52,686 nt of DNA from Minisyncoccota bacterium (GCA_041675045.1 JBAYUP010000002.1:1-52686); one strand, 5' to 3'; positions 1 through 52,686 are shown, counted from the first letter of the stretch. Notes: generated by a model not told the origin, from the letters alone. Program-made: numbers and translations.

Positions 1-5
1 GCGCA

Positions 6-35
6 TTGACAAAAAGAGCATTAAAGAGTGATAAT
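6..35 (+). promoter_or_regulatory. Sigma-70-type promoter candidate (TTGACA-N17-TGATAA/GATAAT)
   Basis: TTGACA at 6-11, a 17-nt spacer, then TGATAAT at 29-35. The exact 11-mer TTGACAAAAAG recurs at 3456-3466 (+) and 28069-28079 (-). It lies upstream of the 111/126 ORF. Confidence 0.45.
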
Positions 36-110
36 GCATCCGAAGCCCCCTCTTCCTATCCACTTTGATAGATTATTGCACTACGGGATAGTGTGGTAAT
101 TAAATAAAAT

Positions 111-692
111 TTGAACCTTAAAAACATGACCATGACAAGATCGATTAGAGTACAGTGGCGTCTACCAAACGACATTCACATTGTACACAAACACCTGCCA
201 ACACTCTCCTTAATACATGGAGGCAGATGGAGTCCCCCACAAGTAAAACCAACCAAGATAACAAGAACACGAGACTGTTATTGGATTGAAACGCTTGAAA
301 GTGACTTTCATATTGATTTGAGTAATACGGATACATACTTTACCAAAGAGCTTAAAGTTCTTGTTAAAATATGGGGAAAGCTCAAAACATACCGAGCCCG
401 AAGTAGTGAAGGAAAAGAGCGGTTGAAATATCTCAAAAATGAGTTTGTGGAAGCATTAGCGCTCCGTGCAGGAGAAAATCAATGCTCTCCATCTGAGAGA
501 CATCAACTATTTTTCCTTGCAACATACAAAGTAACACCCACCCACTTTTACTCAATCTACACGAACGAAAATGACACTCTGCTTTTTGTTATTCCTGAAG
601 GATATGACCCAGCAAGCTATTCCCTTGGAAAAATAAAAAGCATAAAAAATCATTGCGTTCCTAATCATCAAAAAGAGTACACGCACATCTAA
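111..692 (+). CDS. Hypothetical protein (193 aa from TTG at 111; first ATG at 126)
   Basis: Long ORF flanked by a promoter-like site and a hairpin terminator, ending in TAA. I recognise no family motif. Confidence 0.5.
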   Translation: MNLKNMTMTRSIRVQWRLPNDIHIVHKHLPTLSLIHGGRWSPPQVKPTKITRTRDCYWIETLESDFHIDLSNTDTYFTKELKVLVKIWGKLKTYRARSSEGKERLKYLKNEFVEALALRAGENQCSPSERHQLFFLATYKVTPTHFYSIYTNENDTLLFVIPEGYDPASYSLGKIKSIKNHCVPNHQKEYTHI

Positions 693-711
693 TACAAATA
701 CTATGTGCAAC

Positions 712-742
712 AAAAAAGGCGCTCCCTCGAGCGCCTTTTTTT
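712..742. terminator. Bidirectional intrinsic terminator between convergent genes
   Basis: A-run, GGCGCTC stem (718-724), GAGCGCC stem (729-735), then a T-run. It sits between the 111-692 ORF (+) and uvrA (-). Confidence 0.7.
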
Positions 743-3347
743 ATTTCTTACGTAATACTTTCTTTAGATACTTTCCTGTATGACTTGCGGGGGTATTTGC
801 AACTTCCTCTGGCGTACCACGTGCCACTATCTTACCACCACCTTTTCCACCCTCGGGCCCAATATCAATGATGTAATCAGCGCATTTAATAATATCCATA
901 TTGTGTTCAATAAGAATCACACTATTGCCTTTATCGACAAGTTTATTGAGGACTTCAAGAAGCTTCGCGACGTCATCATAGTGCAGTCCCACTGTCGGTT
1001 CATCGAGAAGATAAATCGTCTTTTCTAAATGCGGACGATAGAGTTCAGAAGATATTTTTACACGTTGCGCTTCTCCACCAGAGAGTGTCGTTGCTGATTG
1101 ACCGAGTGTGATATACCCGAGACCAACGTCCATAAGTGTTTTCAATCGGTCATAAATCGCTGGAATTTCCTCAAAGAATACAACGGCTTCTTCGATGGTA
1201 AGCTGGAGCACTTCGTACACGTTCTTCTTTTTATATTTAACAGTCAGTGTTTCTTTGTCGAAACGTTTACCATTACATACATCACAAGTCACATAGACAG
1301 TTGGCAGGAAGTGCATTTCAACAGCAATCTCGCCGTTACCCTCACACGCTTCACAGCGACCGCCTTTTACATTGAAAGAGAAACGATTTGATTTCCATCC
1401 ACGCAAACGCGCTTCTTCACTCGACGCAAATAAATCACGTATATGTGTGAATGCTCCTGTATAGGTAGCGATGTTCGAGCGTGGGGTTCTGCCGATTGGA
1501 GATTGATCAATCAAGATCGCGCGAGAAAGATATTCTGTACCAGTAAATGACGCGCAGTTGAAAATCTTTGCTGTACGAAACTTGCGGTCATAGCGACCTT
1601 GCAAATTTTTATGCAAAATCTCATACATAAATGAACTCTTGCCTGAGCCAGACACACCCGTAATCGTAACGAGCTTACCGAGTGGCACTTCAGCATTTAA
1701 GTTGTCGATATTAAATACTTTTCCTCCAACAATTTTGAGTGAACCCTTCTCGCTTGTTCGGCGTTTTTCTGGAATTTCAATTCGTATTTCATTACGCAAA
1801 TACGCAAGTGTGCGTGATTTTGACGGATTTGTTTTTGCAGAAAGAAGAGGGTCGAGATAGTCAGCTACGATTACTTGCCCGCCGTGCACACCTGCCTTCG
1901 GCCCAATATCAACAATATAATCAGACGCGAAGATAGTATCCTCGTCGTGCTCAACAACGATAATCGTGTTACCAAGGTCACGTAAATCTTCGAGAGTTTT
2001 AATCAGGCGTTCGTTGTCGCGCTGATGAAGTCCAATTGTCGGCTCATCGAGCACATAGAGCGCGCCAACGAGACGTGAGCCAAGCTGTGAAGCAAGGCGG
2101 ATACGCTGTGATTCCCCACCAGAAAGTGTATTCGCCTTGCGATCAAGCGACAAATACTCAAGTCCGACATTGAGCAGAAATTGTAATCGGGCCTCGATTT
2201 CCTTTATCACCACTTTGGCAATTTCTTTTTCTTGTTCATTTAATTCAAGCTCGATGAAAAAATCCGCCGCACCAGAGATAGATAAATGAGTAACCGTCAC
2301 GATATTGTGGCGATTCTTACCTTTCCCGAGGAATACATTCAGTGCTTCTGGTCGCAAACGTGCACCCTGACATACGTCACAGGCTTCTGTGCCACCAAAA
2401 TACTTTGTACCGAGACCATTACATTCTGGACATGCACCAGCTGGTGAATTGAATGAGAAAAGACGTGGCTCAACTTCAGGAAATGAGAAACCATCTTTCG
2501 GACAAGCAAATTTTGATGAGAGGAGAAATTCCTCGTCACCGACTTTAATAACAACGAGGCCGTCTGATTCGACAAGTCCACGCTCGATTGCCTCAGCGAG
2601 ACGCATGCGTGCATCATTCGGATTATCCTTGAACTCGTGAACTGCAAATGTATCGACGAGCACATCAATATCGTGCTTTGCCGTTTTCTTCATATCAATT
2701 CGTTCACGAAGATTCTTCATGTCACCATCAAGACGAATTTTCTGAAAACCCTTATTGAGTAAATCGTAGAGCAACTGGTAGTACTCACCTTTTCGTCCAC
2801 GAACGACAGGAGAAAAAATAGTGAGAGGTGTCTCATCCCATTCGACACCGAGAACTTTTTTAGAATCCTTACCTTTCGTCATTTCTTTTTCACGTGCCTT
2901 TATTTTCCCAAGAGCGAAAGCCACGATTTCTTCATTTGAAAGTTTCTTGATTTCATCACCACAAATAGGACAATGTGGTCGCCCAATACGCGCGTAGAGC
3001 ACACGGAGATAGTCATAGATTTCTGTAATAGTTGCAACTGTTGAACGCGGATTATTTGAACGAGATTTCTGGTCGATAGAAATTGCTGGAGAGAGGCCTG
3101 TGATTTCATCAACATCGGGCTTCGGCATTTGATTCAAGAATTGTCGCGCGTACGCAGAGAGTGACTCGACATATCGACGCTGACCTTCAGCAAAGATGGT
3201 ATCAAAGGCAAGGGATGATTTACCTGATCCTGACATGCCAGTAATAACCACCATTTTATTTCGTGGCATTTCAACATTGATATTTTTCAGATTATGGGTG
3301 CGAGCACCTTTAACTATGATTGATTCGTTTTTGTTTATCTTACTCAT
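741..3347 (-). CDS. uvrA: Excinuclease ABC subunit A (UvrA), 868 aa
   Basis: Two ABC ATPase modules with Walker [15 protein letters not shown] and GVSGSGKSS, and signatures LSGGESQR and LSGGEAQR. Zn-module Cys pairs are present ([13 protein letters not shown]...[14 protein letters not shown]...CDVCNG). Confidence 0.97.
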
Positions 3348-3455
3348 TTTTATATGGGCTTGCCCCGTTTGAAGTAGGCGTTAAATTCCCGCCGCTTGCT
3401 CTAACGGTGGGTGTATCAATATGTAACTAAACACATAGTAACACAAAACTCATGT

Positions 3456-3484
3456 TTGACAAAAAGGATTTAAAGTAGTAATTT
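3456..3484 (+). promoter_or_regulatory. Promoter candidate TTGACA-N17-TAATTT
   Basis: TTGACAAAAAG at 3456-3466 and TAATTT at 3479-3484, about 80 nt upstream of the 3567 ORF. Confidence 0.4.
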
Positions 3485-3500
3485 TCTTTTAAAGGTTCCG

Positions 3501-3558
3501 TCTTTTATTGGTGACTCTAGGAGAGAAATAATTCTCTTTTATGGCCACCAATAAAAGA
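3501..3558 (+). repeat. Nested inverted repeat (13-bp outer stem, 6-bp inner stem) in the leader of the 3567 ORF
   Basis: TCTTTTATTGGTG (3501-3513) is the exact reverse complement of CACCAATAAAAGA (3546-3558). An inner AGAGAA/TTCTCT stem lies at 3522-3537. The structure ends 8 nt before the ATG. Confidence 0.6.
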
Positions 3559-3566
3559 TAAACGCC

Positions 3567-3917
3567 ATGATACAATTACGACTCAGAAAAAAAATCACCT
3601 CTTTGCAAAAAGATGATGAGATTAAAATAGAAGCCAAACGAAACTTGAAACCTGGCTTCTATAAAGTAAAAATTACATTCTGGAGAGGAAAGCAAAAATT
3701 ACTATCAGAACCACAACAGGTAGCAAGACTGGAAAGGTATTTCAACAACGAACGCATGTTCCTTCCTCGAGTTGTTGCAAAAGTAGCTGAATTAAAATTC
3801 CTCATAGCTACATTAAGTAACACAAAAATAGAAGGAGGTATCTCAGTCAAAGACACAACTACTCCGGATAAAAAAGCATGGAAAGTAGTTTTTGTCTTAA
3901 AAGTAAAAGACATTTAA
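3567..3917 (+). CDS. Hypothetical small basic protein (116 aa)
   Basis: ORF with an upstream promoter-like site and a downstream terminator, ending in TAA. No recognisable motif. Confidence 0.5.
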   Translation: MIQLRLRKKITSLQKDDEIKIEAKRNLKPGFYKVKITFWRGKQKLLSEPQQVARLERYFNNERMFLPRVVAKVAELKFLIATLSNTKIEGGISVKDTTTPDKKAWKVVFVLKVKDI

Positions 3918-41054: not shown

Positions 41055-43154
41055 TTATATATCCAACCGTGCCATTTTGGCATGAGATTGAATGAAGGCC
41101 TTACGTGGAGGAACCTCAGAGCCCATGAGCATATCAAACACCTTGTCAGCTTCCTGCGCATCAGTCACAGAAACTTGTTTGAGAATACGACGAGCTGGAT
41201 CCATGGTTGTTTCCCAAAGTTCCTCGGCGTTCATTTCTCCAAGACCTTTGTAGCGTTGAACATGAATCTTGCTCGCACGCTTTGCTTTTACATCTTCTTC
41301 GTCCTCTTCTTCTGGCTCTGCTCCCTCTGGTGCATTCTCACTTTCAGCAAGTAATTCTGCGAGATTTACAGCATCTTTGCCGAGCAATTTATCACGTTCC
41401 TCATCAGAGTACGCATACATAATTTCCTTACCTTTCTTTATTTTGAAAAGTGGTGGTTGTGCAATATACACAAAGCCCGCATCAAGTACTGCGCGGAAAT
41501 AGCGGTACATGAGCGTGAGAATAAGTGTACGGATGTGTGCACCGTCAACGTCCGCATCGGTTGCGATAATAATTTTGTGATAGCGCATTTTTTCGAGATC
41601 AAAGGTATCTCCAATCGATGTTCCCATTGCAATAACAAGATTTTTGATTTGTTCTGAGCCAAGCATACGATCAAGACGAGCACGCTCAACGTTCAAGATT
41701 TTACCGCGAAGTGGCAAGATCGCTTGTGTTTTTCGGTCGCGCCCCATCTTTGCAGTACCACCAGCCGAGTCTCCCTCTACGATGAAAAGCTCAGAAAGTG
41801 ACGCCTCTTTAACCTGACAGTCAGCGAGTTTACCAGGAAGTGTCATCCCCTCAAGCGCGCCCTTTCGGAGCACAGAATCTTTTGCAGCTTTTGCGGCCTT
41901 GCGAGCGCGAAGCGCGAGCAAGGATTTATTAATCATTGATTTCGCTTCATCCGGATTTTCTTCGAGGAACATTGTAAAAGCTTCACCAAACGCAGTCGCC
42001 ACAGCACCTTGGGCCTCAGTAGAACCGAGCTTCGCTTTTGTTTGACCTTCGAATTGAATTTCACGAAGTTTTACAGACACTACCGCAACGAGACCTTCGA
42101 GGACATCATCGCCTGTAAATCCACCATCAGCTTCTTTGATGAGATTATTTTTCTTGCCGTATGTATTTAAAATACGAGTAAGGGCAGTTTTAAATCCTGT
42201 AATATGAGTACCACCTTCAGGGTTATAAATATTGTTAGCAAACGGAACAATTTTCGGAGAAAAATCATCCACATACTGAAGTGCCACTTCGACGCCAACA
42301 TCGTCTACTTCTTTATCAGTATAAAATACAGTTGGGTGTATGGCTTTCTGTGATTTGTTGTAAAACTTTACAAGGGAAACAAGACCTCCCTCAAAATAGA
42401 ATGTTGTTGAGGGAACTTCAAGTCCGAGCTCGCTAAACCAAAAAGCATCTTCAAAATTACCCTTTCCTTTCCCACCTGTGAGAGGATCCCATTCGCGTGC
42501 ATCAATGATATCAATACGCAAACCTTTCACGAGATACGCTTGCTGACGCAAATGATTCACAATTGTATTCCAATCAAATCTTATTTGTTTAAAAATCTCT
42601 TCATCTGGCTCAAAAGAAATAATCGTTCCGTTCATTTTTGAAGAACCTACTTTTTTCACCGCAGCTTTTCTTTTACCTTGAGAATACTCTTGCACATGCT
42701 TTCCTCCTTCACGATGAACTTCTGCTTTTGTATAAATAGAGAGCGCATTCACCACAGACGCACCCACACCGTGAAGACCTCCAGAGACTTTGTATCCGCT
42801 CTCATCACCACCGAATTTACCTCCGGCATGGAGTGTCGTCATAACAGTTTCGAGCGCTGAAACTTTTGTTTTAGGATGAATAGCTACTGGAATACCACGA
42901 CCGTTATCAGCAACTCGCACAGAATTGCCTGGAAGTAGAACAACTTCGATGTGATTACAGTGTCCCCCCATCGCCTCATCGCGAGAGTTATCGAAAATTT
43001 CCCACACCAAATGATGGAGTCCATCAATACCAGTTGAACCAATATACATACCAGGACGACGACGAACTGGCTCGAGTCCCTCAAGAACAGAAATGGCTTC
43101 TGCGCCATATGAACCACCTTCTTTTTTTGTCTTTTTTGTATCGTCTTTTGCCAT
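41055..43154 (-). CDS. gyrB: DNA gyrase subunit B (699 aa from MAKDD; the ORF extends to 43175)
   Basis: GHKL ATPase motifs (EIFDNSRDE, GGLHGVGASVVNALS), TOPRIM ELFIVEGDSAGG, PLRGKILNVE, and an acidic insertion EPEEEDEED. Confidence 0.96.
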   Translation of the reverse strand: MAKDDTKKTKKEGGSYGAEAISVLEGLEPVRRRPGMYIGSTGIDGLHHLVWEIFDNSRDEAMGGHCNHIEVVLLPGNSVRVADNGRGIPVAIHPKTKVSALETVMTTLHAGGKFGGDESGYKVSGGLHGVGASVVNALSIYTKAEVHREGGKHVQEYSQGKRKAAVKKVGSSKMNGTIISFEPDEEIFKQIRFDWNTIVNHLRQQAYLVKGLRIDIIDAREWDPLTGGKGKGNFEDAFWFSELGLEVPSTTFYFEGGLVSLVKFYNKSQKAIHPTVFYTDKEVDDVGVEVALQYVDDFSPKIVPFANNIYNPEGGTHITGFKTALTRILNTYGKKNNLIKEADGGFTGDDVLEGLVAVVSVKLREIQFEGQTKAKLGSTEAQGAVATAFGEAFTMFLEENPDEAKSMINKSLLALRARKAAKAAKDSVLRKGALEGMTLPGKLADCQVKEASLSELFIVEGDSAGGTAKMGRDRKTQAILPLRGKILNVERARLDRMLGSEQIKNLVIAMGTSIGDTFDLEKMRYHKIIIATDADVDGAHIRTLILTLMYRYFRAVLDAGFVYIAQPPLFKIKKGKEIMYAYSDEERDKLLGKDAVNLAELLAESENAPEGAEPEEEDEEDVKAKRASKIHVQRYKGLGEMNAEELWETTMDPARRILKQVSVTDAQEADKVFDMLMGSEVPPRKAFIQSHAKMARLDI

Positions 43155-43233
43155 AGTATTAGAGACAGAAAGCATGAATTGCTCTCATATCATGCCTCAA
43201 GTATAGCAAGAAAACAGAATAAAATAAAGCACC

Positions 43234-43271
43234 AAAAAGCCCTTTTGGAGCTTATGGCAAAAGGGCTTTTT
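43234..43271 (-). terminator. Intrinsic terminator closing the surface-protein operon
   Basis: AAAAAGCCCTTTTG...CAAAAGGGCTTTTT hairpin of 14 bp overlapping the stop of the 481-aa gene. Confidence 0.8.
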
Positions 43272-44715
43272 ATTCTTTTTCGATATCTTTAATTTCCTTC
43301 AAGATAACCTTTTCAGCGGATTCAATATCTTTCTTAAATTTCACAAGGAATGTTCGCTCAGTTTCAGAAAGTGGCTTGTGTGCCTTTATTTTACGGAAGA
43401 TATTTATCTGCATATCCATATCCTCTTCGAGTGTTTCAAAACTCTGGGTTATCACTGATTCTGTGGTGACAAGTTTTTTCTTGAGATACGCATGCATCTT
43501 TCGCAAATAATATACTCCATAAATAATAAGTGCGATAAGAACGAGTAACAGCGCAAGAACTGGAGTAACAATAGTTAAATAATTATTTAATTTAGAAAAG
43601 AAATTTCCCCATGCATTTCTCTTAACCTCAATACGGATTGGCTTACCTGGATTGCTTTCAATACCATCTTTTGTGATAGCTTTCGCATTTACTGCATACG
43701 TTCCAAGTTTCATCTTGTCATCAGATACGAAACTCCACTTACCAGAATTGTTTGATTGGATATGTCCGACGAAATATTCAGTTGTCTCAACATTTGTCAC
43801 AGTCACATCAACATCCATGAGAGGATCCGCTGTTCCTTTTATGATAAGAAAATCATTCACATACACAGTTGTAGGATAATCAGTAATAACTGGTGTCGAA
43901 ATAGCGGTTGTTGAAAATTCAGCAAACCCACTCATTGAGACATCAAGAAGGTCGCGCGCCGTCACTTTAATAGTATGAATACCTCGCGCCAAATCTGGTG
44001 CCTCATAGATATGACTACCGTCATCAATCCATGAAATAACATCGAGAGAATCAATCGCCACAATGTACGCACGGTCTTTTACTGCACGTGGTGGAGTAAT
44101 AAGAAAACGCTTTGGTGCATTCTGTTCCCCGCTCTTTTTCAATTCTTCGATTTTAATAACATTATTAGCAGATGGTTTTGATTCCGTCGGTTCTGCTTTT
44201 GCTGGTACACGTTGTGTTGACTGAAGCACAGTGACAGTACTTATGCCTTTAGTTGAACTTAATTCCGTTCCATTTCCATCATTTGCTAAAACCGCTCCTT
44301 GTAAGAATTTAAGCGTTGCAACACCTGGTGCTTTCGCTTTGAAGATTAGCGTTACTACAGTCCCGCCACCACCAGCATAACCGTTGAGAATTACCCCTTC
44401 AAAAGTTGCAGTTCCTGTACTATTTGAATACGACGGTTCCTGTGCCCAGAGATTAATAATCGAGCCAGCTTTTGAAATTGATGTGAGAGAAAGAATTTCA
44501 CTTGGATAACTCACTTTCGCAGAAACAGCATTTATAGACGCATCACTTGAAACTGCTACACGAATACGTACGGCATCACCAACTGAATATGACGAAACTG
44601 AGGGAACAAAGTTCAATGATGCTGCGTGGGACACTTCTGCCGAAGAAAATAACCCTGCGAAAATTAAACAGAAGAGAAAAATAAAACGATTAAAATAATT
44701 TTTTACGACGAGCAT
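43270..44715 (-). CDS. Cohesin-like surface protein (481 aa) with Ig-like modules, a C-terminal TM anchor and a charged cytoplasmic tail
   Basis: Signal peptide ...SHA-AS. Cohesin-like module SLNFVPSVSSYSVGDAVRIRVAVSS...VSYPSEILSL...TFEGVILNGYAG..LIFKAKAPGVATLKF. TM helix LTIVTPVLALLLVLIALIIYGVYY. The family call is by eye. Confidence 0.6.
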   Translation of the reverse strand: MLVVKNYFNRFIFLFCLIFAGLFSSAEVSHAASLNFVPSVSSYSVGDAVRIRVAVSSDASINAVSAKVSYPSEILSLTSISKAGSIINLWAQEPSYSNSTGTATFEGVILNGYAGGGGTVVTLIFKAKAPGVATLKFLQGAVLANDGNGTELSSTKGISTVTVLQSTQRVPAKAEPTESKPSANNVIKIEELKKSGEQNAPKRFLITPPRAVKDRAYIVAIDSLDVISWIDDGSHIYEAPDLARGIHTIKVTARDLLDVSMSGFAEFSTTAISTPVITDYPTTVYVNDFLIIKGTADPLMDVDVTVTNVETTEYFVGHIQSNNSGKWSFVSDDKMKLGTYAVNAKAITKDGIESNPGKPIRIEVKRNAWGNFFSKLNNYLTIVTPVLALLLVLIALIIYGVYYLRKMHAYLKKKLVTTESVITQSFETLEEDMDMQINIFRKIKAHKPLSETERTFLVKFKKDIESAEKVILKEIKDIEKE

Positions 44716-45577
44716 ATTTTATAGCAATCAACACTACAACGAGTCCGAAGAATAGTATGAGTATATTATACACGGAGAAGAGAGGAGATGGAAGCGGTTC
44801 AATCATGGCAAATGCTTTTTTGTCACTAAAACTCACCGCTTGAATAATAATACGCTTGTGCCGAGATTGATCTTCGAGCACATACGGACTCTGTTCAACT
44901 TTTTTCCACTCACGATCACCTTCTTTTACGAGAACTTCTCTAATTCCTGATCCACCATCAGAAGCATTATAGATAAGAACAAATTTGCCCTTATACACAT
45001 CCTTATCTGTTGTCACGTATGCTTCAATCTCAGGAATACTCTCAACTCCTTCTGGAACATATTTTGTTTCCCCTTGGATATTTTTAACAATAATTTTCTG
45101 TGGAGAGGTAGAAAGAGTATGGAGTGTACCAACACCATTATTCTCGGTTGCTGTTGTAGAAATAAACGAAAGTTCACTCGCTCCATGAGAACGACCCTCA
45201 AACACAAGTCGCATCACCCGTCCTGGTGAAGACTTCCCATTACTAAATGGATCAATCACCCCCATAAAACCATTTGGAATAATCCCCGCAAAAGAGACTA
45301 CACCTTCGGTTGAGACATGAGGTTTTTCGATCCATGCGTTCACGATAGATCTCCCCTCCTCGGCCTGAATAAATGTGAGCGTCTCTTTTGAATATGAGAT
45401 TGAACCCTCAATTCCATTATAAGAAACATTTTCAGGGGAAAGAAAAACATCAACATAAAACTGTTCTCCAATCGCAACGCTTGTGCTCGAAGGAACAAAC
45501 GAGAGACTACCTGCATACACAGAAGAAGCACAAAAAAGAAGCACGGCACACAAACATCCACGATATATATATTTCAT
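44690..45577 (-). CDS. Cohesin-like surface protein (295 aa from MKYIYRG; the ORF extends to 45604) with a C-terminal TM anchor
   Basis: Signal peptide ...SVYA-GS. SLSFVPSSTSVAIGEQFYVDVFLS...ISYSKETLTF...SFAGIIPNGFMG...LVFEGRSHGASELSF is paralogous to the 481-aa protein. TM helix ILILFFGLVVVLIAI. Confidence 0.6.
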   Translation of the reverse strand: MKYIYRGCLCAVLLFCASSVYAGSLSFVPSSTSVAIGEQFYVDVFLSPENVSYNGIEGSISYSKETLTFIQAEEGRSIVNAWIEKPHVSTEGVVSFAGIIPNGFMGVIDPFSNGKSSPGRVMRLVFEGRSHGASELSFISTTATENNGVGTLHTLSTSPQKIIVKNIQGETKYVPEGVESIPEIEAYVTTDKDVYKGKFVLIYNASDGGSGIREVLVKEGDREWKKVEQSPYVLEDQSRHKRIIIQAVSFSDKKAFAMIEPLPSPLFSVYNILILFFGLVVVLIAIKYARRKKLF

Positions 45578-45591
45578 ATTAATCATAATAA

Positions 45592-46530
45592 TTATCCTGT
45601 CCAATTAAAGGCCATAATACTAAAGTCAACCAATGTAATTTTTGTATCTTTATTAAGGTCAACACGTGCTGGTGGAGCCGGTCGCTTGTACCAATACGCC
45701 ATGATTGAGAAGTCTACAAGATTCACTCGATCATCACAGTTCAAGTCACCTCGCAATTTCCCACATTCACCAACATCGAGCTTTTTGGAAAGCAAACTGA
45801 CCAAGAATGACAGCGTTGGGCTGATGGCACTGATTTGATCTTCAAGAAATGTTTTTGATTTCACTGTGTGTCCACCGTATTCAAGAGGTGACGTATCCAT
45901 GTCGTATTTATATATTCCAGTATTATCTGTTTTAACCTTGCGACTGATTTCTTCTTCTGAGTGGAATACAACATCCACGTTACTGTTAGGTGTTGTTTGT
46001 CCAAATACCTGGAGTGTATCCCCGCGTTTTACTTCCGATTTATCAATTGAGATAGTCGGAGACAAAAAGATTCCTCCGATATTCACCGTCGTACCAGATG
46101 TGACAAAAATTGGGAATGAAAATGTGAGTGATTTAACTCGATTCGCATCTTCTCCATATACAGAGAAATTATATGTACCCGAGGTAAGACCGGTCACACT
46201 AACTGAAAAGCGCGCGCCGGGATCAGACACGGTCGTAGCAGCAATAGAGCCATTTTTCAAAATAGTTATTTTGGAAGACGGATATCCGAGTCCGGAGAAA
46301 TTCACCGTTCCTTCACCTGTTCCACCTCCGCCGGCACCGCCTCCTCCACCGCCACCTCCTCCACCTCCACCACCTCCACCACCTCCACTACTCGTGGAAA
46401 CAACAGTAGCAGAAATAGTTACGGCGGAATCAACAGTTAAAGAAACGACGAGTCCAGGTAAAACAATAATCGCAATCGCAACAATACAAACTGACACATA
46501 TAATGGTTGTTTTCTCGAAAAAATATTCAT
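45592..46530 (-). CDS. N-terminally anchored protein (312 aa) with a poly-Gly linker, two Ig-like modules and a C-terminal dockerin-like repeat pair
   Basis: TM or signal-anchor helix VCIVAIAIIVLPGLVV, then a Gly run G16-A-G4 (21 residues). The C-terminus GDLNCDDRVNLVDFSIMAYWY...VDLNKDTKITLVDFSIMAFNW looks like a duplicated Ca-binding dockerin segment. Confidence 0.6.
   Translation of the reverse strand: MNIFSRKQPLYVSVCIVAIAIIVLPGLVVSLTVDSAVTISATVVSTSSGGGGGGGGGGGGGGGGGAGGGGTGEGTVNFSGLGYPSSKITILKNGSIAATTVSDPGARFSVSVTGLTSGTYNFSVYGEDANRVKSLTFSFPIFVTSGTTVNIGGIFLSPTISIDKSEVKRGDTLQVFGQTTPNSNVDVVFHSEEEISRKVKTDNTGIYKYDMDTSPLEYGGHTVKSKTFLEDQISAISPTLSFLVSLLSKKLDVGECGKLRGDLNCDDRVNLVDFSIMAYWYKRPAPPARVDLNKDTKITLVDFSIMAFNWTG
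45595..45768 (-). other. Dockerin-like duplicated segment (domain of the 312-aa protein)
   Basis: Two repeats of the form D-L-N-x-D-x-x-[VI]-x-L-V-D-F-S-I-M-A about 32 residues apart. Confidence 0.5.
46324..46386 (-). repeat. (GGN)n low-complexity tract encoding 16 Gly, 1 Ala and 4 Gly
   Basis: The plus strand reads CCACCTCCGCCGGCACCGCCTCCTCCACCGCCACCTCCTCCACCTCCACCACCTCCACCACCTCC. Confidence 0.9.
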
Positions 46531-47531
46531 TACGAAAGAGGTGCCCGTGACCTTTTAATAATATATGTATTATATTTCTTGAGTAATTGACGACCTCCTA
46601 AGAATAGTACTGCGCCAATACATACGACTACAAGCATAAGGTGCCATGGAAATACAAAAAATACGAGATGTTCAATATCGGTCTGTTGTTGATTTCCATA
46701 CACGAGGGAAAGTTTCGCAAAATACGGACCAAGTGCAAAATTCTTCCATTGATACTGGACCGTTCGAAAGAAAGAAGCCGTACGCCCTCCAAAGAATGGC
46801 TCAGAATCATCATGAGAATACTCGAGCCATTGTACTTCAAACAATCTGGTACTCCCGGGCAACACATTACCGAGAGATTGATTCGCATCAATACGTTTTG
46901 TGGGATACCATACAGTATTTCGAATTGTAATCTTCCCTTCTGGTTTTACCCTATCATTTCCATCATTACGAAAACGATACTCAAAATGAACAGGCAATGA
47001 TGTATGAAAAAACTTTTTATTTTTTGTAGCAAAACTAAGTAATCCTCCCGCTTCATTAATATCACCAACAACAGAAAGTAGGACGAGGACACCTGTTTTT
47101 GCAGCAATAGCTACCTGCCCTTCTCGAGTAGCACTTGGCGCAGTTCCAAAAAAGATAGCTCCAAAGTGCCCCCCAGAAGAAGCGTCTTTGGGAATAGAAA
47201 TAGAAACCGAAACGTTTTTTGATCCACCTGGTGGCACCGTAATAGAACTCGGGGCATTCATCCATGTACCAATATCATTTGTAGGTTCAATAAAATGAGG
47301 ACTACCAGTTTCACCCTGTGCCTCAAAATTAGCAAAGGAAATAAAAAATGTTTGTGATGTTGTTTTGTTCTCATTCAAAAGAGTAATGTCTTTGTGAATA
47401 GTGTCACCGGGCTTTCCACTCAACTCAATCCGTGCAGGAGAAACAGTTAGCGCATATACTGTGCTACTTGAAACACCAAAGAACATTATGACTACTAAGA
47501 AATATATTATTTTTTTCATATTTATATACAT
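46530..47531 (-). CDS. DUF916-like (CscA-like, PapD-like Ig-fold) secreted protein with a C-terminal TM anchor (333 aa; likely start at Met5, 47519)
   Basis: Signal peptide ...VYA-LT. LTVSPARIELSGKPGDTIHKDITLLN...WMNAPSSITVPPGGSKNVSVSISIPKDASSGGHFGAIFF. TM helix LMLVVVCIGAVLFLGG. The family call is by eye. Confidence 0.5.
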   Translation of the reverse strand: MYINMKKIIYFLVVIMFFGVSSSTVYALTVSPARIELSGKPGDTIHKDITLLNENKTTSQTFFISFANFEAQGETGSPHFIEPTNDIGTWMNAPSSITVPPGGSKNVSVSISIPKDASSGGHFGAIFFGTAPSATREGQVAIAAKTGVLVLLSVVGDINEAGGLLSFATKNKKFFHTSLPVHFEYRFRNDGNDRVKPEGKITIRNTVWYPTKRIDANQSLGNVLPGSTRLFEVQWLEYSHDDSEPFFGGRTASFFRTVQYQWKNFALGPYFAKLSLVYGNQQQTDIEHLVFFVFPWHLMLVVVCIGAVLFLGGRQLLKKYNTYIIKRSRAPLS

Positions 47532-47537
47532 ATAATA

Positions 47538-48620
47538 TTAAAAATTTGCGGTTGCCACAAAAGTCTGTGTGGTTGAATAACTTCCTGCCTCAGTCGACGA
47601 GCTTATATTGGTAATATACCTAACTGAATATGTGTCTGTTGTTGTGGCCACAGTTGCACTTGCTACTTGGGCTGACGTTGAGGACGTAGCTGTATATGCA
47701 TACCCCGACGCAGCGTACGGTGCAGTAACTGCACCTGATCCACCAGATTGTGTAAGGCGCATACCGAATTGTTCCGAACCTGCTGAAGAGTTTGTGTTCG
47801 CAGGAAGAGCAGTAATAGTATTTAATCCTGAAGTGAGAGTTGCACCTTGTACGGTGAGTGTATACCCTGTTGGGCTGTTTGTATGTGCTGCCATCGAAAA
47901 TGCTTCAGCTTCGCTTGTGGTTGGACAGGTTGTGTCTCCGGGATCAGAGCCTTGTGCAAAACACGCAAATGAAGACGATAGATTTCCGAAAAATATTGTA
48001 GCATCAGAAACAGAAAATGAGAGCGTCTCGTCAACCGTGGCAGATACGGCGACTGCACTATTTGATAGTATAGGAACAGACATAACTCCGGTATCTCCAA
48101 AACTTCCAGTTATCGAAACATATAGTGTACCAGCAGTTCCACTCGTAATACCAAACACACCAGTTGATTGGTTGGTTGCATTTGTTCCGATCTTAAAAGT
48201 AACAACGCTTCCAGCAGTGATTGGAGATGATCCGTTCGTAAATGTAATCACGGTTGCAGATGTTCGTACTACACCCGCTGTTGCACCAGATGGAGTGCTT
48301 GCAAGCGTCAAATCAACTCCATCATCAAGCACATCAATATCTGTATATGTTAGTGAGGAGTGAATTGTCGGTGCGGTAGCAGATGATGAAAACGTAAGGA
48401 TAATAGTTCCACCAGAAGCAACACCTGTCGGAGTCGTAAATACAAGTGTATGATTTGCACTTGTGCTTGCCGATTGAGTATTTAGAGCATCAGAAAGATT
48501 AGTAAGCGATGCTGCTTGCACAAAAGATACGAATGAAAATCCAAAAGTATACACAAAAACAAACACGGTAAATATAAGTTGCGTAACTATTTTATTTGTT
48601 TGTACAGAATGAATAGTCAT
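47538..48620 (-). CDS. Secreted Thr/Ser/Ala-rich beta protein (360 aa) with a WxL-like C-terminal domain; paralogue of 48624-49595
   Basis: Signal peptide ...VQA-AS. C-terminal half LSFSVSDATIFFGNLSS...GYTLTVQGATLTSGLNTITA...FGMRL...GSGAVTAPYAASGYAY...AGSYSTTQTFVATANF. Confidence 0.55.
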   Translation of the reverse strand: MTIHSVQTNKIVTQLIFTVFVFVYTFGFSFVSFVQAASLTNLSDALNTQSASTSANHTLVFTTPTGVASGGTIILTFSSSATAPTIHSSLTYTDIDVLDDGVDLTLASTPSGATAGVVRTSATVITFTNGSSPITAGSVVTFKIGTNATNQSTGVFGITSGTAGTLYVSITGSFGDTGVMSVPILSNSAVAVSATVDETLSFSVSDATIFFGNLSSSFACFAQGSDPGDTTCPTTSEAEAFSMAAHTNSPTGYTLTVQGATLTSGLNTITALPANTNSSAGSEQFGMRLTQSGGSGAVTAPYAASGYAYTATSSTSAQVASATVATTTDTYSVRYITNISSSTEAGSYSTTQTFVATANF

Positions 48621-48623
48621 ATT

Positions 48624-49595
48624 TTAAAATGTTGGCGTGGCGACAAAAGTAAGTGTGGTTGTGTATGACCCAGCAGGCAACACCTGTTCAATCGTCGCCA
48701 CTGAACGGACAGAGTATGTTGTCGTTACATCATCTCCAGTGCTTGCACTTGCAAGTGTTGAAGCGGTTGTCGTTGTTCCAGCATACGCAAAGCCAGACGC
48801 TGAATAAGGAGATGATACGGCACCAGATCCCCCAGTTGCTGTTGCGCGAATACCAAATCTGTTCGTTCCCGCTGTTGGAGTTGTGTTTGTTCCACCGATT
48901 GCAGTAATAGTATTTCCTCCGCTTGTGAGAGTATCTCCCTGCACAGTAAGAATATATCCGTATGGAGCATTTGTATTCACTGTCATATTAAATGCTTCAG
49001 TTTGAGTACTACTCCCCGTTCCATCACCGGTTGCGTACCTAAGTGCCGAAGAAGACAAACTACCGAAACCAATTGTATTGTCAGATACGGTAAACGAAAT
49101 TGCTTGAGAAAAAATATCCGCGCAGATTTTATTTGTGTAAGCACTCGGCCCTCCCGCTTGTGCATTTGTTGGAGTTCCAGACATTGACGCAACTGTTGTA
49201 TCGTACCCCGTACAATCAACAGATTCATACCCAATGGTAATAATGTCGCCAGCGTACACACTCGAGAGACAGGCATTCTGTCCATAATTTGACTCAGTAT
49301 TTTCTTCAACATGCGCGTTCGTCACGCCTGAAAGTTTTGCGAGCACTCCATAATTCCCTGAACATGAATTCCCGAGTCCCGTAACGCCACTACAACAAAT
49401 CACATTACTGTCATATACGGCTGTTGCTTGACTTGGAAGTTCAGCGTGAGCATTATCACTCCCCGAAAGACGAAGAACAACGGTACCACTACAAAGCGCC
49501 GAAGTAGTAAGTGAACACGAGAGCGCCGCATACACAACATGCAACGGCATGCCTATCAACATCAAAGCAACGACGATTGAGAAATTGTTTTTCAT
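48624..49595 (-). CDS. Secreted protein (323 aa from MKNNFS; the ORF extends to 49634) with a Cys-rich N-terminal half and a WxL-like C-terminal domain
   Basis: Signal peptide ...VYA-AL. Eleven Cys after the signal peptide and a duplicated L[RK]LSGxxNAHxE motif. C-terminal ISFTVSDNTIGFGSLSS...GYILTVQGDTLTSGGNTITA...FGIRA...AGSYTTTLTFVATPTF. Confidence 0.55.
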   Translation of the reverse strand: MKNNFSIVVALMLIGMPLHVVYAALSCSLTTSALCSGTVVLRLSGSDNAHAELPSQATAVYDSNVICCSGVTGLGNSCSGNYGVLAKLSGVTNAHVEENTESNYGQNACLSSVYAGDIITIGYESVDCTGYDTTVASMSGTPTNAQAGGPSAYTNKICADIFSQAISFTVSDNTIGFGSLSSSALRYATGDGTGSSTQTEAFNMTVNTNAPYGYILTVQGDTLTSGGNTITAIGGTNTTPTAGTNRFGIRATATGGSGAVSSPYSASGFAYAGTTTTASTLASASTGDDVTTTYSVRSVATIEQVLPAGSYTTTLTFVATPTF

Positions 49596-49596
49596 A

Positions 49597-52500
49597 TTAT
49601 GGTTGTGGTTCACTGGATGATAGAGAAGATGCATCAGAATTTACGGGATCAGACGGAACATTTACATCTCCATCACCAGTTACCGGAGGAAGTGATCCAC
49701 CTGTTCCTTCGTCTACGGTCACATCGTCACCTGAAGATGAATCATCCCCACCGCTTACATCAATACCTGACGCATCGCTCCCATCTGTCCCGCTATTTCC
49801 TGAAGCATCTCCGCCATCTACCACGCCAGATCCATCAGAGGATCCACTTCCACCACCTGAACCTCCACCATTTGACCCATCAGAAATAGTTCCACCTAAA
49901 AGTTCTTTCAATTTTTTCAACTCCTCTCGTGTCACACAGACATCTTCTTCCGCTTCGTCGTCACCAGAAAGACACAATTTCTTTGTGCGGACTTCCCCAA
50001 AGAACACAACCTCAAGAGAATTATCAATATCAGCGAGGAATGTTTTCACAAGAGATGCTACTGAATTTTGATTCTCGAGATCAAGCGACGCGACACCCTC
50101 CACCTTAATATTCAAATCTTGAATTGATTTCACAATAAGTGGAGTGAGTTGACTATAACTCACCTTCCAGTATTCATTTGGATTTGTGGGTGCAAACACC
50201 GCATCAGGATATGATTCGTATAATTCTTGTGCAACGAAACCATGCACGAGATTTTCAGGATTTGCATTGTAGTAGAAGTCTCTAACTTTAATACTCATCA
50301 AGTCAGTAAGACCAATAGTTGTATCTGTAATTGGGTTATTATTTTTCAATCGTTCGTCAGATGGCGCACAGACATTTGCTTGTCCACCGGTATAACAAAT
50401 AGATCCGACATCGCCTCCATCTCCATCATTGAATTGAATCCATTTACCTGCACTTGGTGTATCGGCACCTGCTTGGATGACAATACCGTAACGGTTGTCA
50501 TTGTTACCATCGTTGAAGAAATTAGCAGAGTAGGTTGAAGAGGCATCAGCTCGAACATCAAGACGGTACGAAGGAACGTTTGTACCAATACCTAAATTAT
50601 TTGAAGCATCATTCCAGAAAAAGTTTGTATTATCACCAGCAAAGTTCCCACTGGCATCAACAAAGACAATAGAACCACTCGCATCTGAAAGTGTTAAAGT
50701 CTGTTTCGAAAAAGCAAGCCATCCTGAACCATCATAAAAGTTTGGTACATTTGTACTTGCGTTATAAAGGAAGAGACCTGTCGCAGGAGACGCTATTGCA
50801 TCACGTTGTCCTGTACTCAATCGTGGAGGGAGAAATCCTTGTGTTGTAGAATATATTTCAAAAACCGCAGAAGGAACAGCTCCTGTATTACTATAGTATT
50901 TAGCTGAATCAGTCATAAAGTTTGCCATAAGAATACCTCCACCAGTATTAGAGTCAGATTGAATCATACCAGCCGTATTAATCAACAAACCATAATTTCT
51001 AAGACGAGTACCTGCCCCTGCAATATCAAATACTCCTGCATTCGTCGTCATGTAGCCCCATTTTGACAATACCCCCTCAGAGGTATTTATATCAGAACGG
51101 ATTTCAAGCATCGTATCACCTGTTGTGTTTTTTACTCTCAAGAGATAATCATAGAGTGTCTGTCCTGTAATCTGGAGGTATGCTGTTGGGTTTGATTCTC
51201 GAATACCAATATTTCCATTTCCTTTTACGATTAACCTATCACCACCGGCAAGTGTATATGAAGATCCCGATGCAGTACCTGAAAACGCAACCGAGACAGT
51301 AATATCAGTATCTGAAGTAATTACAGATATGGTTTTTGTTTCAGATCCTGAAGTAGTTGTTACAGTAATCGTATCACCCACTTTGAATGTATTTGTAAAT
51401 TGCGTACCCGAACCAGTAACGGTCGTCGGCGCACCGCCAGTAATCGTCACAGTACCTGTTCCTGCTGTTGGTTGTGTAACTTGGAAATTCGCTGTCGGCG
51501 ATGTTGTGCCAAGACCGAGACGATTGTTGGTGTTGTCAAAGAAAAGACTAGTAGTATCTGAAGTTAGGTTTCCACTTGCATCAGCAAACATGAGTGACCC
51601 CGATGCTGTTTGTGTCTCACCAGCAATGAGTGCTATTTGATTTCTTATTGAAGCTGGGGTGAAATACAATGTCGAACTACTAAATTCAAATGCCCCAGCT
51701 TCTGGCGTTGCCATATTTGTTCCCGTCGTAAGTTTAAGTGGTGCAAAATTCGCACTTCCATCGCCGGCTTTTATATGGAGAAGTGCGGATGCCGTACCAG
51801 AATCACCGATACGAAAATTTCCATTTGCATTAAGATTCATTCGAGCTGTATCATTAGTTCCGAAATATATTCGTGCATTCTCACGATTATAAAAATACGC
51901 ATCAGCTCCATTCACACCAAAGGTAAACCCGTCAGCAGTTGAATTATACCCAGTATCAGTTGTTTGAATTTGATTATACGAAACAGAACCTGTCGAACGC
52001 AGATATAGCTGTATATTTTGATTTGTATAGATGTCGAGAGGCGACGCAGGAGTTGCAGTACCTATTCCTAGATAATTCGAGGATGCGTCCCAGAAGAGAC
52101 TGCTATTGTCTTCAGCGACATATCCACTGGTCGTTGCAAACAAAACTGAGCCCGTCGTAAACGCTGTAGCAGTTGCATTTTGCAAGAGAATATTACGATC
52201 ACTATTTGATGGAGAGAAATAAAGTTGAGTTCCATCGTATTCCACCGCCCCCGCTTCTGCTGTGGTGAGATTTGTTCCAGAAGTAAATTTAAGTGGTGCA
52301 GTTGAAGCAGTTGCTGTACCTGCGGGTAAGTGTAATCGTGCAGTTGCACCCACTGTACCAATCCCCACATTACCAGTAGTTGCTATTCTAATAGCATCAG
52401 TTCCACCATTGATACCAAAGCCGAGCGCAGTGCCACTACTTGCTGAAGTTAAGTACCCGAGAGAAGCTTCGGTTCCGTAGATAACACCATTAAGACTAGA

Positions 52501-52686
52501 ATCGAGGAAGTAAGCAATTTCACCCGTTCCACTTCTTCGAATATCCAAATGCGCCCCCGGACTCGCCGTCCCAACTCCTAATCTGTTGTTCGAATTGTCC
52601 CAGAAGAAGCTTGCATTATCTTGTGTATAGTTTCCACTTGCATCAGCAAAGACAATAGAACCTGGTGTAAATGTAGTAGAGGTTCC
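49597..52686 (-). CDS. Giant tail-fibre-like surface protein, N-terminally truncated by the window edge (at least 1029 aa) with an internal S74 intramolecular-chaperone domain and an acidic Gly/Ser/Asp tail
   Basis: The frame stays open from 52686 with no stop, so the TTG at 52548 is not the true start. A ~40-aa motif GS[IVL]xF[AV]xxSGxxxxDxxxxF[FW][DN]xxxNxLG[IVL]GT occurs four times. The S74-like block is SDERLKNN...GFVAQELYESYPDAV...VSYSQLTPLIVKSIQDL. Confidence 0.75.
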   Translation of the reverse strand, partial: GTSTTFTPGSIVFADASGNYTQDNASFFWDNSNNRLGVGTASPGAHLDIRRSGTGEIAYFLDSSLNGVIYGTEASLGYLTSASSGTALGFGINGGTDAIRIATTGNVGIGTVGATARLHLPAGTATASTAPLKFTSGTNLTTAEAGAVEYDGTQLYFSPSNSDRNILLQNATATAFTTGSVLFATTSGYVAEDNSSLFWDASSNYLGIGTATPASPLDIYTNQNIQLYLRSTGSVSYNQIQTTDTGYNSTADGFTFGVNGADAYFYNRENARIYFGTNDTARMNLNANGNFRIGDSGTASALLHIKAGDGSANFAPLKLTTGTNMATPEAGAFEFSSSTLYFTPASIRNQIALIAGETQTASGSLMFADASGNLTSDTTSLFFDNTNNRLGLGTTSPTANFQVTQPTAGTGTVTITGGAPTTVTGSGTQFTNTFKVGDTITVTTTSGSETKTISVITSDTDITVSVAFSGTASGSSYTLAGGDRLIVKGNGNIGIRESNPTAYLQITGQTLYDYLLRVKNTTGDTMLEIRSDINTSEGVLSKWGYMTTNAGVFDIAGAGTRLRNYGLLINTAGMIQSDSNTGGGILMANFMTDSAKYYSNTGAVPSAVFEIYSTTQGFLPPRLSTGQRDAIASPATGLFLYNASTNVPNFYDGSGWLAFSKQTLTLSDASGSIVFVDASGNFAGDNTNFFWNDASNNLGIGTNVPSYRLDVRADASSTYSANFFNDGNNDNRYGIVIQAGADTPSAGKWIQFNDGDGGDVGSICYTGGQANVCAPSDERLKNNNPITDTTIGLTDLMSIKVRDFYYNANPENLVHGFVAQELYESYPDAVFAPTNPNEYWKVSYSQLTPLIVKSIQDLNIKVEGVASLDLENQNSVASLVKTFLADIDNSLEVVFFGEVRTKKLCLSGDDEAEEDVCVTREELKKLKELLGGTISDGSNGGGSGGGSGSSDGSGVVDGGDASGNSGTDGSDASGIDVSGGDDSSSGDDVTVDEGTGGSLPPVTGDGDVNVPSDPVNSDASSLSSSEPQP
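50095..50367 (-). other. Peptidase S74 / chaperone-of-endosialidase-like autoproteolytic domain
   Basis: CAPSDERLKNNNPITD...LMSIKVRDFYYN...HGFVAQELYESYPDAVF...WKVSYSQLTPLIVKSIQDLN matches the family pattern S-D-x-R-x-K ... G-[FL]-I-A-Q-E ... Y-x-x-L ... I-Q-x-L. Confidence 0.65.

Follow-up and report, generated by a model that had tools for sequence, protein, structure and literature searches.

A candidate Pam-type pilus operon of Paceibacteria with a proposed cohesin-dockerin anchor

Bacteria of the candidate phyla radiation (CPR, or Patescibacteria) may account for a large part of all bacterial diversity. They live in attachment to host cells, and except for a few cultivated Saccharibacteria, little is known of how they attach. 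Here, we analyze seven minus-strand genes, g1 to g7, at one end of a 52,686-nucleotide stretch from the genome of a Minisyncoccota bacterium (GCA_041675045.1, JBAYUP010000002.1:1-52686), the whole of which is referred to below as the window. The seven genes form a real and conserved operon. Its family appears to be the counterpart, in Paceibacteria, of the Pam pilus, which has been reported mainly from Saccharimonadia and Microgenomatia (bioRxiv 10.64898/2026.03.03.709456).

For the Pam system, two filaments of Ca. Mycosynbacter amalyticus have been solved by cryo-electron microscopy. The pilins PamA, PamB, and PamE consist of an N-terminal beta-sandwich and a single linker strand that is donated to the truncated immunoglobulin (Ig) domain at the C terminus of the neighboring subunit. 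The chaperones PamC and PamD resemble PapD/FimC and have a transmembrane helix at the C terminus. PamT is a single-domain tip with an acceptor role only, and PamR, the terminator and anchor in M. amalyticus, is composed of an N-terminal strand, two fibronectin type III domains, and a transmembrane helix. A tail-fiber-like protein is central in pam neighborhoods (all bioRxiv 10.64898/2026.03.03.709456). The text of that preprint makes no mention of cohesin, dockerin, WxL, or Paceibacteria. Another system for comparison is the WxL (Csc) cluster of Firmicutes, which in its canonical form encodes a single WxLIP and a pair of WxL proteins, with a strand of WxLIP completing the WxL sandwich, so that the published WxLIP-WxL model is formally a chaperone-subunit complex (PMC10599100). 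An earlier note on this DNA, made from the sequence alone, knew of no characterized system that shares the composition of the operon, a statement that does not stand for the core, which very likely corresponds to the Pam system described from the CPR (bioRxiv 10.64898/2026.03.03.709456).

Predicted pilins and chaperone, and a donor-strand motif

Taken as a whole, the operon is probably best explained as a Paceibacteria-type Pam pilus with strand-exchange assembly and a cohesin-dockerin anchor. We consider its identity as a Pam-type pilus to be very likely and regard cohesin-dockerin anchoring, as a separate matter, as evenly balanced. What is observed falls into three kinds, namely the domains of the products, the distribution of a donor-strand motif, and gene order among related genomes. 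The genes and their domains are as follows:

g1, 49597..>52686, minus strand: 3' part (1029 codons) of a giant tail-fiber-like surface protein, with its 5' end past the contig end
g1 Peptidase_S74 intramolecular chaperone domain, ~50197-50361, minus strand: 29.3 bits in Pfam against a cut-off of 22
g2, 48624..49634, minus strand, probable start ATG at 49595: candidate tip adhesin with signal peptide, Cys-rich N-terminal domain, and Pam-type C-terminal acceptor domain
g3, 47538..48620, minus strand: major Pam-type pilin, predicted, with signal peptide, N-terminal beta-sandwich, linker/donor strand, and C-terminal acceptor domain ending in ...VATANF
g3 putative donor strand VAVSATV, residues 190-196, nucleotides 48033-48053, minus strand: in the linker
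g4, 46530..47531, minus strand: PapD/WxLIP-like protein with signal peptide, two Ig-like domains, and C-terminal transmembrane helix at residues ~296-329
g5, 45592..46530, minus strand: proposed pilus terminator and adaptor with signal sequence, donor-like strand, poly-Gly, two Ig-like domains, and dockerin
g5 donor-strand-like VTISATV, residues 37-43, nucleotides 46402-46422, minus strand: right after the signal peptide
g5 poly-Gly linker, nucleotides ~46322-46388, minus strand: read from the sequence
g5 dockerin, residues 261-306, nucleotides 45613-45750, minus strand: Dockerin_1, 22.8 bits
g6, 44690..45604, minus strand, probable start 45586: signal peptide, cohesin-like domain at residues ~32-160, Ig-like domain, transmembrane segment at residues 275-293
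g7, 43270..44715, minus strand: signal peptide, cohesin-like domain at residues ~31-150, Big_13-like Ig domain, charged tail of ~80 residues
g7 transmembrane segment, residues 380-398, nucleotides 43522-43578, minus strand: read from the sequence

The products of g2 and g3 score 71.2 and 80.2 bits, respectively, against the NCBIfam model NF058581 (CPR_Pam_pilin_C, "Pam pilus system pilin subunit"; cut-off 55), one of the Pam models of NCBIfam together with NF058578 and NF058579, and on sequence grounds both are taken to be Pam-type pilins. The C-terminal domain is all that the two proteins have in common (52% identity, E 2e-41), and the match begins just past the g3 donor strand. An AlphaFold2 monomer model of g3, built from a 121-sequence alignment and with a predicted local distance difference test score (pLDDT) of 93.1, has two beta domains: strands at residues 40-185 are followed by an unstructured linker at 186-199 that bears VAVSATV and by the C-terminal domain at 200-358. 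Homologs of g3 number more than 1068 and those of g4 589. All of those that carry a name come from Parcubacteria, Paceibacteria, Nomurabacteria, or Taylorbacteria, and there is no precomputed Pfam domain in any of the 120 best g3 homologs. Searches of the PDB by sequence, with g3 as a single protein or as the 121-sequence profile, gave no match, neither to PamA/PamB nor to WxL.

The linker strand of g3 follows the pattern [VI].[VI][STN]A.V, in which hydrophobic residues alternate as they do in donor strands, and its occurrence among the relatives of each gene is markedly uneven:

g3-like pilins: 71/95, directly before the C-terminal domain
g5-like proteins: 37/60, always within the first ~90 residues, past the signal peptide
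g2-like proteins: 0/34
g4-like proteins: 0/76
g6-like proteins: 0/48
g7-like proteins: 2/57
shuffled g5 N-termini: 0.5%

The N-terminal domain of g2 (49130-49525, minus strand, residues ~37-170) consists of three Cys-bracketed repeats of ~45 residues, each with an LSG..NAH core, and none of 300 shuffles scored as high as the alignment of repeat 1 with repeat 2. The pseudo-threefold arrangement of this domain resembles small lectin folds, and it has no Pfam or PDB match. The g2-like proteins of related genomes (n = 34) always end in the acceptor domain. Their total length varies from 313 to 1338 residues, the N-terminal part being a small Cys-rich domain at one extreme and longer than 1100 residues at the other. 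Judged from these sequences, this would be the length and domain pattern of a tip adhesin.

The g4 product is best read, from its model, as a PapD/WxLIP-like membrane-anchored chaperone. AlphaFold2 predicts a signal helix, two Ig-like sandwiches, and a transmembrane helix at residues 296-329 (pLDDT 91.3), and a Foldseek search of the PDB with this model returned RbmA (2.8e-11), the Enterococcus faecium WxLIP structures 9i1y and 9i25 (~5e-11 to 2e-10, target-normalized score TMt 0.48-0.51), and the chaperones CfaA, CsuC, Caf1M, FimC, and PapD (5e-10 to 1.5e-7). Comparison of the g4 family profile with PDB sequences gave nothing useful. The description of g4 as a DUF916-like Ig protein with a membrane anchor is thereby supported in predicted fold and architecture, with the Pfam family WxLIP_PGBD (DUF916) itself sub-threshold in g4 (23.3 bits against 27.3) and weakly matched in 22 of 37 family members.

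These similarities bear on a different reading, in which g4 tethers a short and a long secreted protein by strand complementation as in a WxL/Csc-type complex, with no polymerization. E. faecium WxLIP structures are among the best structural matches of g4, one of them (9i25) described as "bound to long WxL"; the sub-threshold WxLIP_PGBD matches recur through the family; and a set with a single WxLIP and a pair of WxL proteins (PMC10599100) is mirrored by g4 with g2 and g3. The partner proteins themselves do not fit, however, as g2 and g3, which had been called WxL-like, have no Pfam WxL match (E <= 1), contain no tryptophan, and exceed the cut-off for the Pam pilin domain. In addition, a conserved, exposed linker strand in g3 and the same motif at the N terminus of g5 are hard to explain without strand donation between subunits, and the Pam homologs are proven filaments by cryo-electron microscopy. 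We therefore consider a non-polymerizing WxL/Csc-type complex unlikely. On the relationship of the Pam C-terminal domain to the WxL domain, the Foldseek search with g3 matched generic tandem-Ig adhesins only.

A proposed cohesin-dockerin base for the pilus

The g5 product ends in a dockerin without a C-terminal transmembrane segment, unlike the architecture of PamR. Its Dockerin_1 score stands against a cut-off of 22.9 bits, and the assignment, first made from the sequence, is borne out by the family, of which 35/36 members match Dockerin_1 (best E 1.7e-11) and 32/36 match Big_6. The duplicated calcium-binding F-hand repeats are DLNCDDRVNLVDF and DLNKDTKITLVDF, and these two are the only dockerin F-hand motifs in all six frames of the window. 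The PamR model NF058578 gives weak matches in 2 of 36 g5 relatives, and the two proteins concerned were not located among ten divergent g5 homologs examined. In three related loci (L065, L068, and L069), the g5 homolog is ~615 residues long. The N-terminal part of the one in L065 aligns with the pilin profile as a pilin N-domain (hhalign probability 97.2%, E 3.8e-11), and from its sequence this protein looks like a pilin in which the acceptor domain has been replaced by Ig domains and a dockerin. We think it rather probable that g5 is a strand-donating terminator, and its function is probably equivalent to that of PamR, with a different architecture.

The poly-Gly segment of g5 is encoded by an imperfect 9-nucleotide (GGN)3 tandem array (4.1 copies, 96% matches), and because the length of the linker differs widely among g5 homologs, it could change by slippage. 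A plus-strand open reading frame (ORF) of 230 codons at 45866-46558 is a poly-Pro antisense artifact of this segment.

Downstream of g5, the N-terminal domains of g6 and g7 share 31% identity (E 7e-21). The Pfam family Cohesin is matched by 9/32 members of the g6/g7 family (best 6.9e-11), and the top PDB matches of the family profile are the cohesins 5aoz, 5m2o, and 5g5d (E 0.004-0.05), in agreement with the earlier description of both proteins as cohesin-like. Past its transmembrane segment, g7 has a charged tail (43270-43520, minus strand, residues ~400-481) that appears by inspection to be a coiled coil. From its position after the membrane segment it is predicted to be cytoplasmic, and it may link the anchor with a component of the cell interior; it has a weak match to an Rz-like spanin family in PHROG (E 4.4e-4).

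From these components, a pilus can be envisaged that would need neither usher nor sortase and would be assembled through exchange of donor strands at the outer face of the CPR cytoplasmic membrane. All subunits would be exported by Sec, and the membrane-tethered g4 would cap the open groove of g2 and g3 with the last strand of its first domain. The g2 protein, an acceptor with no donor strand and with a variable, Cys-rich, lectin-like N-terminal domain, would nucleate the filament and become its distal tip adhesin. Subunits of g3 would then join at the base, the linker strand VAVSATV of each entering the groove of the previous subunit, until g5, with VTISATV at its mature N terminus, inserts into the last g3 and ends growth, because it has no acceptor domain and hence no groove to offer. 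The calcium-binding dockerin of g5, on its flexible poly-Gly tether, would bind the cohesin of g6 and/or g7 and yield a membrane-anchored pilus, so that the terminator and anchor role of PamR would here be split between a dockerin adaptor and cohesin anchors. This comes close to what the earlier note had proposed, a non-covalent adhesive fiber held on the membrane by the cohesin proteins, with the difference that the shaft would not be g1.

Several points weigh against this explanation. With respect to the pilus itself, the PamT equivalog model scores only 24 bits for g2 and 34.5 for g3 against a cut-off of 240, the Foldseek search of the PDB with the g3 model found generic tandem-Ig adhesins only and neither PamA nor PamB, and the g4 family matches no Pam-named NCBIfam model, it being uncertain whether the library includes models for PamC and PamD. 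The strict donor motif is missing in 23/60 g5-like proteins. At the base, the dockerin of g5 falls 0.1 bit below the Pfam cut-off; g6 and g7 of the window reach no Pfam Cohesin score, the assignment being transitive through 9/32 relatives; and there are two cohesin proteins for one dockerin. The dockerin could instead bind a surface component of the host or prey. Finally, every protein-protein contact in the scheme (g3-g3, g4-g3, g5-g3, and g5 with g6 or g7) is one that we infer from monomer models and sequence only.

The co-occurrence of cohesin-like and dockerin domains with membrane anchors could also be taken to indicate a small cellulosome-like scaffold for the display of enzymes at the cell surface. 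In the window, however, the sole dockerin sits on a non-catalytic Ig protein that bears the donor-strand motif of pilins, joined in some genomes by a pilin N-domain; the anchors have a single cohesin-like domain apiece; and Pfam and NCBIfam detect no carbohydrate-binding module or glycoside hydrolase domain in the operon. An enzyme scaffold is accordingly highly improbable and was rejected on the grounds of the single non-catalytic dockerin, the lack of carbohydrate-binding and hydrolase domains, and the pilin motif on the dockerin protein.

Conservation of the operon and its variable upstream gene

Gene order was surveyed in 80 related loci, one genome per GTDB species, and order counts were taken from the 59 of these with at least 5 kb past the last pilin gene. 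In 39 of the 59, the pilin gene or genes are followed by g4, g5, and one or more cohesin genes in that order, and the g3-g4-g5-cohesin module proves to be conserved. Wherever g5 is downstream of the pilins in these 59 loci, a cohesin gene is present as well. A further 12 loci have g5 upstream of the pilin, 9 of them together with a cohesin-like gene. Sequence resembling g1, by comparison, is present in just 7 of the 80 loci.

An alternative architecture is found in loci mostly labeled Kaiserbacteria (L058-L063, L067, L070-L072, L074, L079, and L081). In loci of this type, the g5-like dockerin protein is encoded upstream of the pilin, and its N-terminal strand is followed by a Cys-rich "myxo_disulf_rpt" insert. 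A tblastn comparison detects no g4-like chaperone there, and as many as three cohesin-like genes come next. Six other loci (L002, L026, L035, L050, L076, and L078) come from genomes with GTDB titles of Bacteroidia, Gammaproteobacteria, or Methylomirabilis; these titles likely reflect bin contamination or automated mislabeling rather than true occurrence outside the CPR.

The position upstream of the pilus operon looks like an interchangeable slot for giant adhesins. In relatives, it is occupied by unrelated giant ORFs of 922 to >2781 residues, on the same strand and directly before the pilus operon, among them proteins of 2578 residues with Bact_surface_Ig-like, >2465 residues with Laminin_G_3, and >2781 residues with nine PATR repeats. 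The giant tip and upstream proteins of relatives have few or no Pfam domains. Where the region upstream of the giant ORF is visible, it encodes a UvrD/AddB-like helicase, PheS, and PheT. Giant ORFs in the slot, all on the same strand as the operon, include:

L004, 76-7812
L008, 3-7400
L018, 27-8372
L012, 5213-7981

Within this slot, g1 is a phage-derived occupant that is loosely associated with the operon. The S74 chaperone domain that had been recognized in it lies above the Pfam cut-off, the protein falls in PHROG tail-fiber families with E values down to 1.3e-23, and it has relatives on 24 IMG/VR viral contigs. Since g1-like sequence is so rare among the loci and the g3 family is absent from IMG/VR viral contigs, where g1 has its 24 relatives, g2-g7 is the conserved unit. 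As a self-cleaving trimeric fiber, g1 is probably a separate surface adhesin that is co-expressed with the pilus. Beyond the S74 domain, it continues for ~165 residues (49597-50100, minus strand) with a short helical segment and then a low-complexity tail that is acidic and rich in Gly, Ser, and Asp. For an intramolecular chaperone that is released, this tail is unusually long.

A model along the lines of the earlier note would place g1 at the center, with an S74-matured g1 as the shaft and the pilin-like, dockerin, and cohesin proteins serving to assemble and anchor it. The TAA-T-ATG junction would couple translation of g1 and g2, the closest relative (L082) has the same g1-operon arrangement, and the Pam preprint places a tail-fiber-like protein centrally in pam neighborhoods. 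Against this, g1-like sequence accompanies the operon in only a minority of related loci, whereas the g3-g4-g5-cohesin module is conserved; the slot of relatives holds unrelated giants (Laminin_G_3, PATR, Bact_surface_Ig-like); and Pfam, NCBIfam, and motif scans find no dockerin, cohesin, Pam domain, or donor motif in g1. A g1 shaft thus seems quite improbable, and the shaft is most likely a g3 polymer.

The 5' end of g1 has not been recovered, as the source contig and those of relatives break in or near it. The ORF runs without a stop to the end of the window, essentially the end of the contig as well (ENA ERZ27247358 k141_2328093, 79 kb, starts inside g1). The contigs of L082 (Logan SRR25018345; 1-2998) and L010 (Nomurabacteria GW2011; 1-3652) likewise start inside a g1-like gene, and that of L083 (NCBI GCA_964469225.1) begins just upstream of the g3 homolog, just downstream of the expected place of g1. 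Among these loci, L082 and L083 represent the two closest relatives. That at least three independent assemblies break inside a g1-like gene, and a fourth just downstream, suggests that g1 is repetitive or hypervariable within populations.

The phage affinities of g1 (tail-fiber matches in PHROG, relatives on viral contigs, and the S74 domain) raise the question of whether the whole operon could be a tail module of a prophage or of phage origin, for example a tailocin or a receptor-binding apparatus, in which case capsid, terminase, or baseplate genes might be expected upstream. The window and the upstream regions of relatives instead hold housekeeping genes, gyrB follows the operon in 9 loci, no relative of the g3 family was found in IMG/VR, and g2-g7 have no significant PHROG matches, the best being the coiled-coil/transmembrane match in g7. 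A prophage module was rejected for its housekeeping context, the absence of the g3 family from IMG/VR, and the lack of PHROG support for g2-g7, and we give it almost no credence.

The setting of the operon is that of the housekeeping chromosome of a Paceibacteria (Parcubacteria) genome, and the rest of the window is ordinary chromosome encoding UvrA, UvrB, DnaG, RpoD, RpoC, RpoB, RNase R, SMC, ThrRS, and GyrB. As read from the sequence, g1 and g2 are joined by TAA-T-ATG with the ATG of g2 at 49595, gaps of 3 and 6 nucleotides separate g2 from g3 and g3 from g4, g4 and g5 overlap in TAATG, g5 and g6 are ~5 nucleotides apart, and g6 and g7 overlap by 26 nucleotides. The seven ORFs are therefore as tightly packed as had been claimed, except that the last overlap exceeds the stated 0-6 nucleotides. 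The operon closes with a hairpin that a consensus terminator scan missed because its loop is 10 nucleotides long; its folding energy is -17.9 kcal/mol (z = -2.9 relative to shuffled sequences, of which one in 200 was equally good), and with its U-rich tail before gyrB it confirms the terminator reported at the operon end. The two features beyond g7 are as follows:

terminator hairpin, 43233..43272, minus strand: 15-bp stem and U-rich tract
gyrB, 41055-43175: after the terminator, assigned from Pfam families on the called gene

Each of g2-g7 has an N-terminal hydrophobic signal or anchor segment, and g4, g6, and g7 additionally have a C-terminal transmembrane segment. The further claim that every product carries such a segment holds for these six, the N terminus of g1 lying beyond the contig end, and the claim that no product has a catalytic domain holds by Pfam and NCBIfam for all but the self-cleaving Peptidase_S74 chaperone domain of g1. 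Overall, profile and structure searches mostly upheld the S74, WxLIP-like, dockerin, and cohesin-like calls made from the sequence, and they did not uphold the WxL-like ones.

Implications and comparison with known systems

Two linked readings follow, which we put forward jointly as tentative, short of what we would call probable. The first is that the donor-strand-exchange pilus of Paceibacteria and many other CPR lineages would be fastened by a cohesin-dockerin plug, the dockerin of g5 in the cohesin of g6 or g7, and not by covalent or transmembrane anchoring. The second is that CPR Pam clusters and Firmicutes WxL/WxLIP (Csc) clusters would be evolutionarily related, as versions of one usher-less strand-complementation machinery around a transmembrane-anchored chaperone with two Ig domains. 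The pilus itself is already known, and a cohesin-dockerin pilus base is apparently undescribed; our literature search found nothing relevant on dockerin together with Patescibacteria or on WxL together with donor-strand exchange.

If the first reading is true, it would represent a new biological use of cohesin and dockerin, as a releasable pilus anchor. It would account both for the way in which a monoderm with neither sortase nor usher keeps hold of a non-covalent pilus and for the easy detachment of Pam pili, and the joint would offer a simple, testable pair of recombinant domains. If the second is true, WxL clusters may also form strand-exchanged assemblies, and the structural tie between g4 and WxLIP suggests a wider, unrecognized family of usher-less strand-complementation surface systems in monoderms. 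A cohesin-dockerin pilus anchor conserved across dozens of CPR species and a possible relationship between Pam and WxLIP would surprise specialists in these systems. The variable N-terminal domains of the tip and the interchangeable giant adhesin gene upstream are likely determinants of host specificity.

Among described systems, Pam is the closest. Shared with it are the restriction to CPR bacteria, pilins exported by Sec whose C-terminal Pam acceptor domain scores above cut-off, a two-domain pilin with an internal linker donor strand (g3; the N-terminal domain of g2 differs), a PapD-fold chaperone with a C-terminal transmembrane helix (g4), a candidate acceptor-only first subunit (g2, by absence of the motif) and a putative strand-only terminator (g5), the absence of usher, ATPase, and sortase from the operon, and an adjoining tail-fiber-like gene. 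The system described here differs in its lineage (Paceibacteria/Parcubacteria), in a g2 tip with a variable adhesin N-domain where PamT has a single domain, in having one major pilin rather than the set PamA/PamB/PamE, in a g5 terminator with a dockerin in place of the transmembrane helix, in the addition of two transmembrane-anchored cohesin-like proteins, and in having gyrB as a neighbor, with no ATP-synthase neighborhood.

In predicted fold and architecture, with two Ig-like domains and a transmembrane helix, g4 matches the WxLIP of the WxL/WxLIP (Csc) clusters, and the logic of the cluster is also alike, namely a transmembrane-anchored strand donor with short and long secreted partners that have a common C-terminal domain. 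In contrast to those clusters, g2 and g3 have no WxL domain or W-x-L motif, there is no LPXTG (CscD-like) protein, and the taxon is another one. WxL proteins are, moreover, described as peptidoglycan-bound monomers and not as filaments.

Chaperone-usher pili (Pap/Fim, CFA/I class 5, and archaic Csu) likewise use strand complementation by a two-domain Ig chaperone, a tip adhesin that joins a receptor domain to a pilin domain, and a terminator subunit at which growth stops (cf. PapH). The present system differs from them in having no outer membrane or usher (Pfam and NCBIfam find no usher domain in the seven products), a tethered chaperone, a donor strand in an internal linker rather than an N-terminal extension, and its proposed cohesin-dockerin anchoring. 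Phage tail fibers and endosialidases with a C-terminal S74 domain share with g1 tail-fiber repeats, an S74 domain beginning at SDERLK, and relatives on viral contigs; g1 differs in lying on a cellular chromosome without other phage genes and in its long acidic Gly/Ser/Asp tail past the S74 domain. Lastly, known cohesin-dockerin pairs, cellulosomal and non-cellulosomal, have in common with g5-g7 a duplicated F-hand dockerin and, putatively, a cohesin-related beta-sandwich on a cell-anchored protein. They differ from the operon described here, which has no enzymes and no multi-cohesin scaffoldin, holds its cohesins on transmembrane helices rather than by S-layer homology domains or sortase, and has, as its proposed cargo, a pilus.

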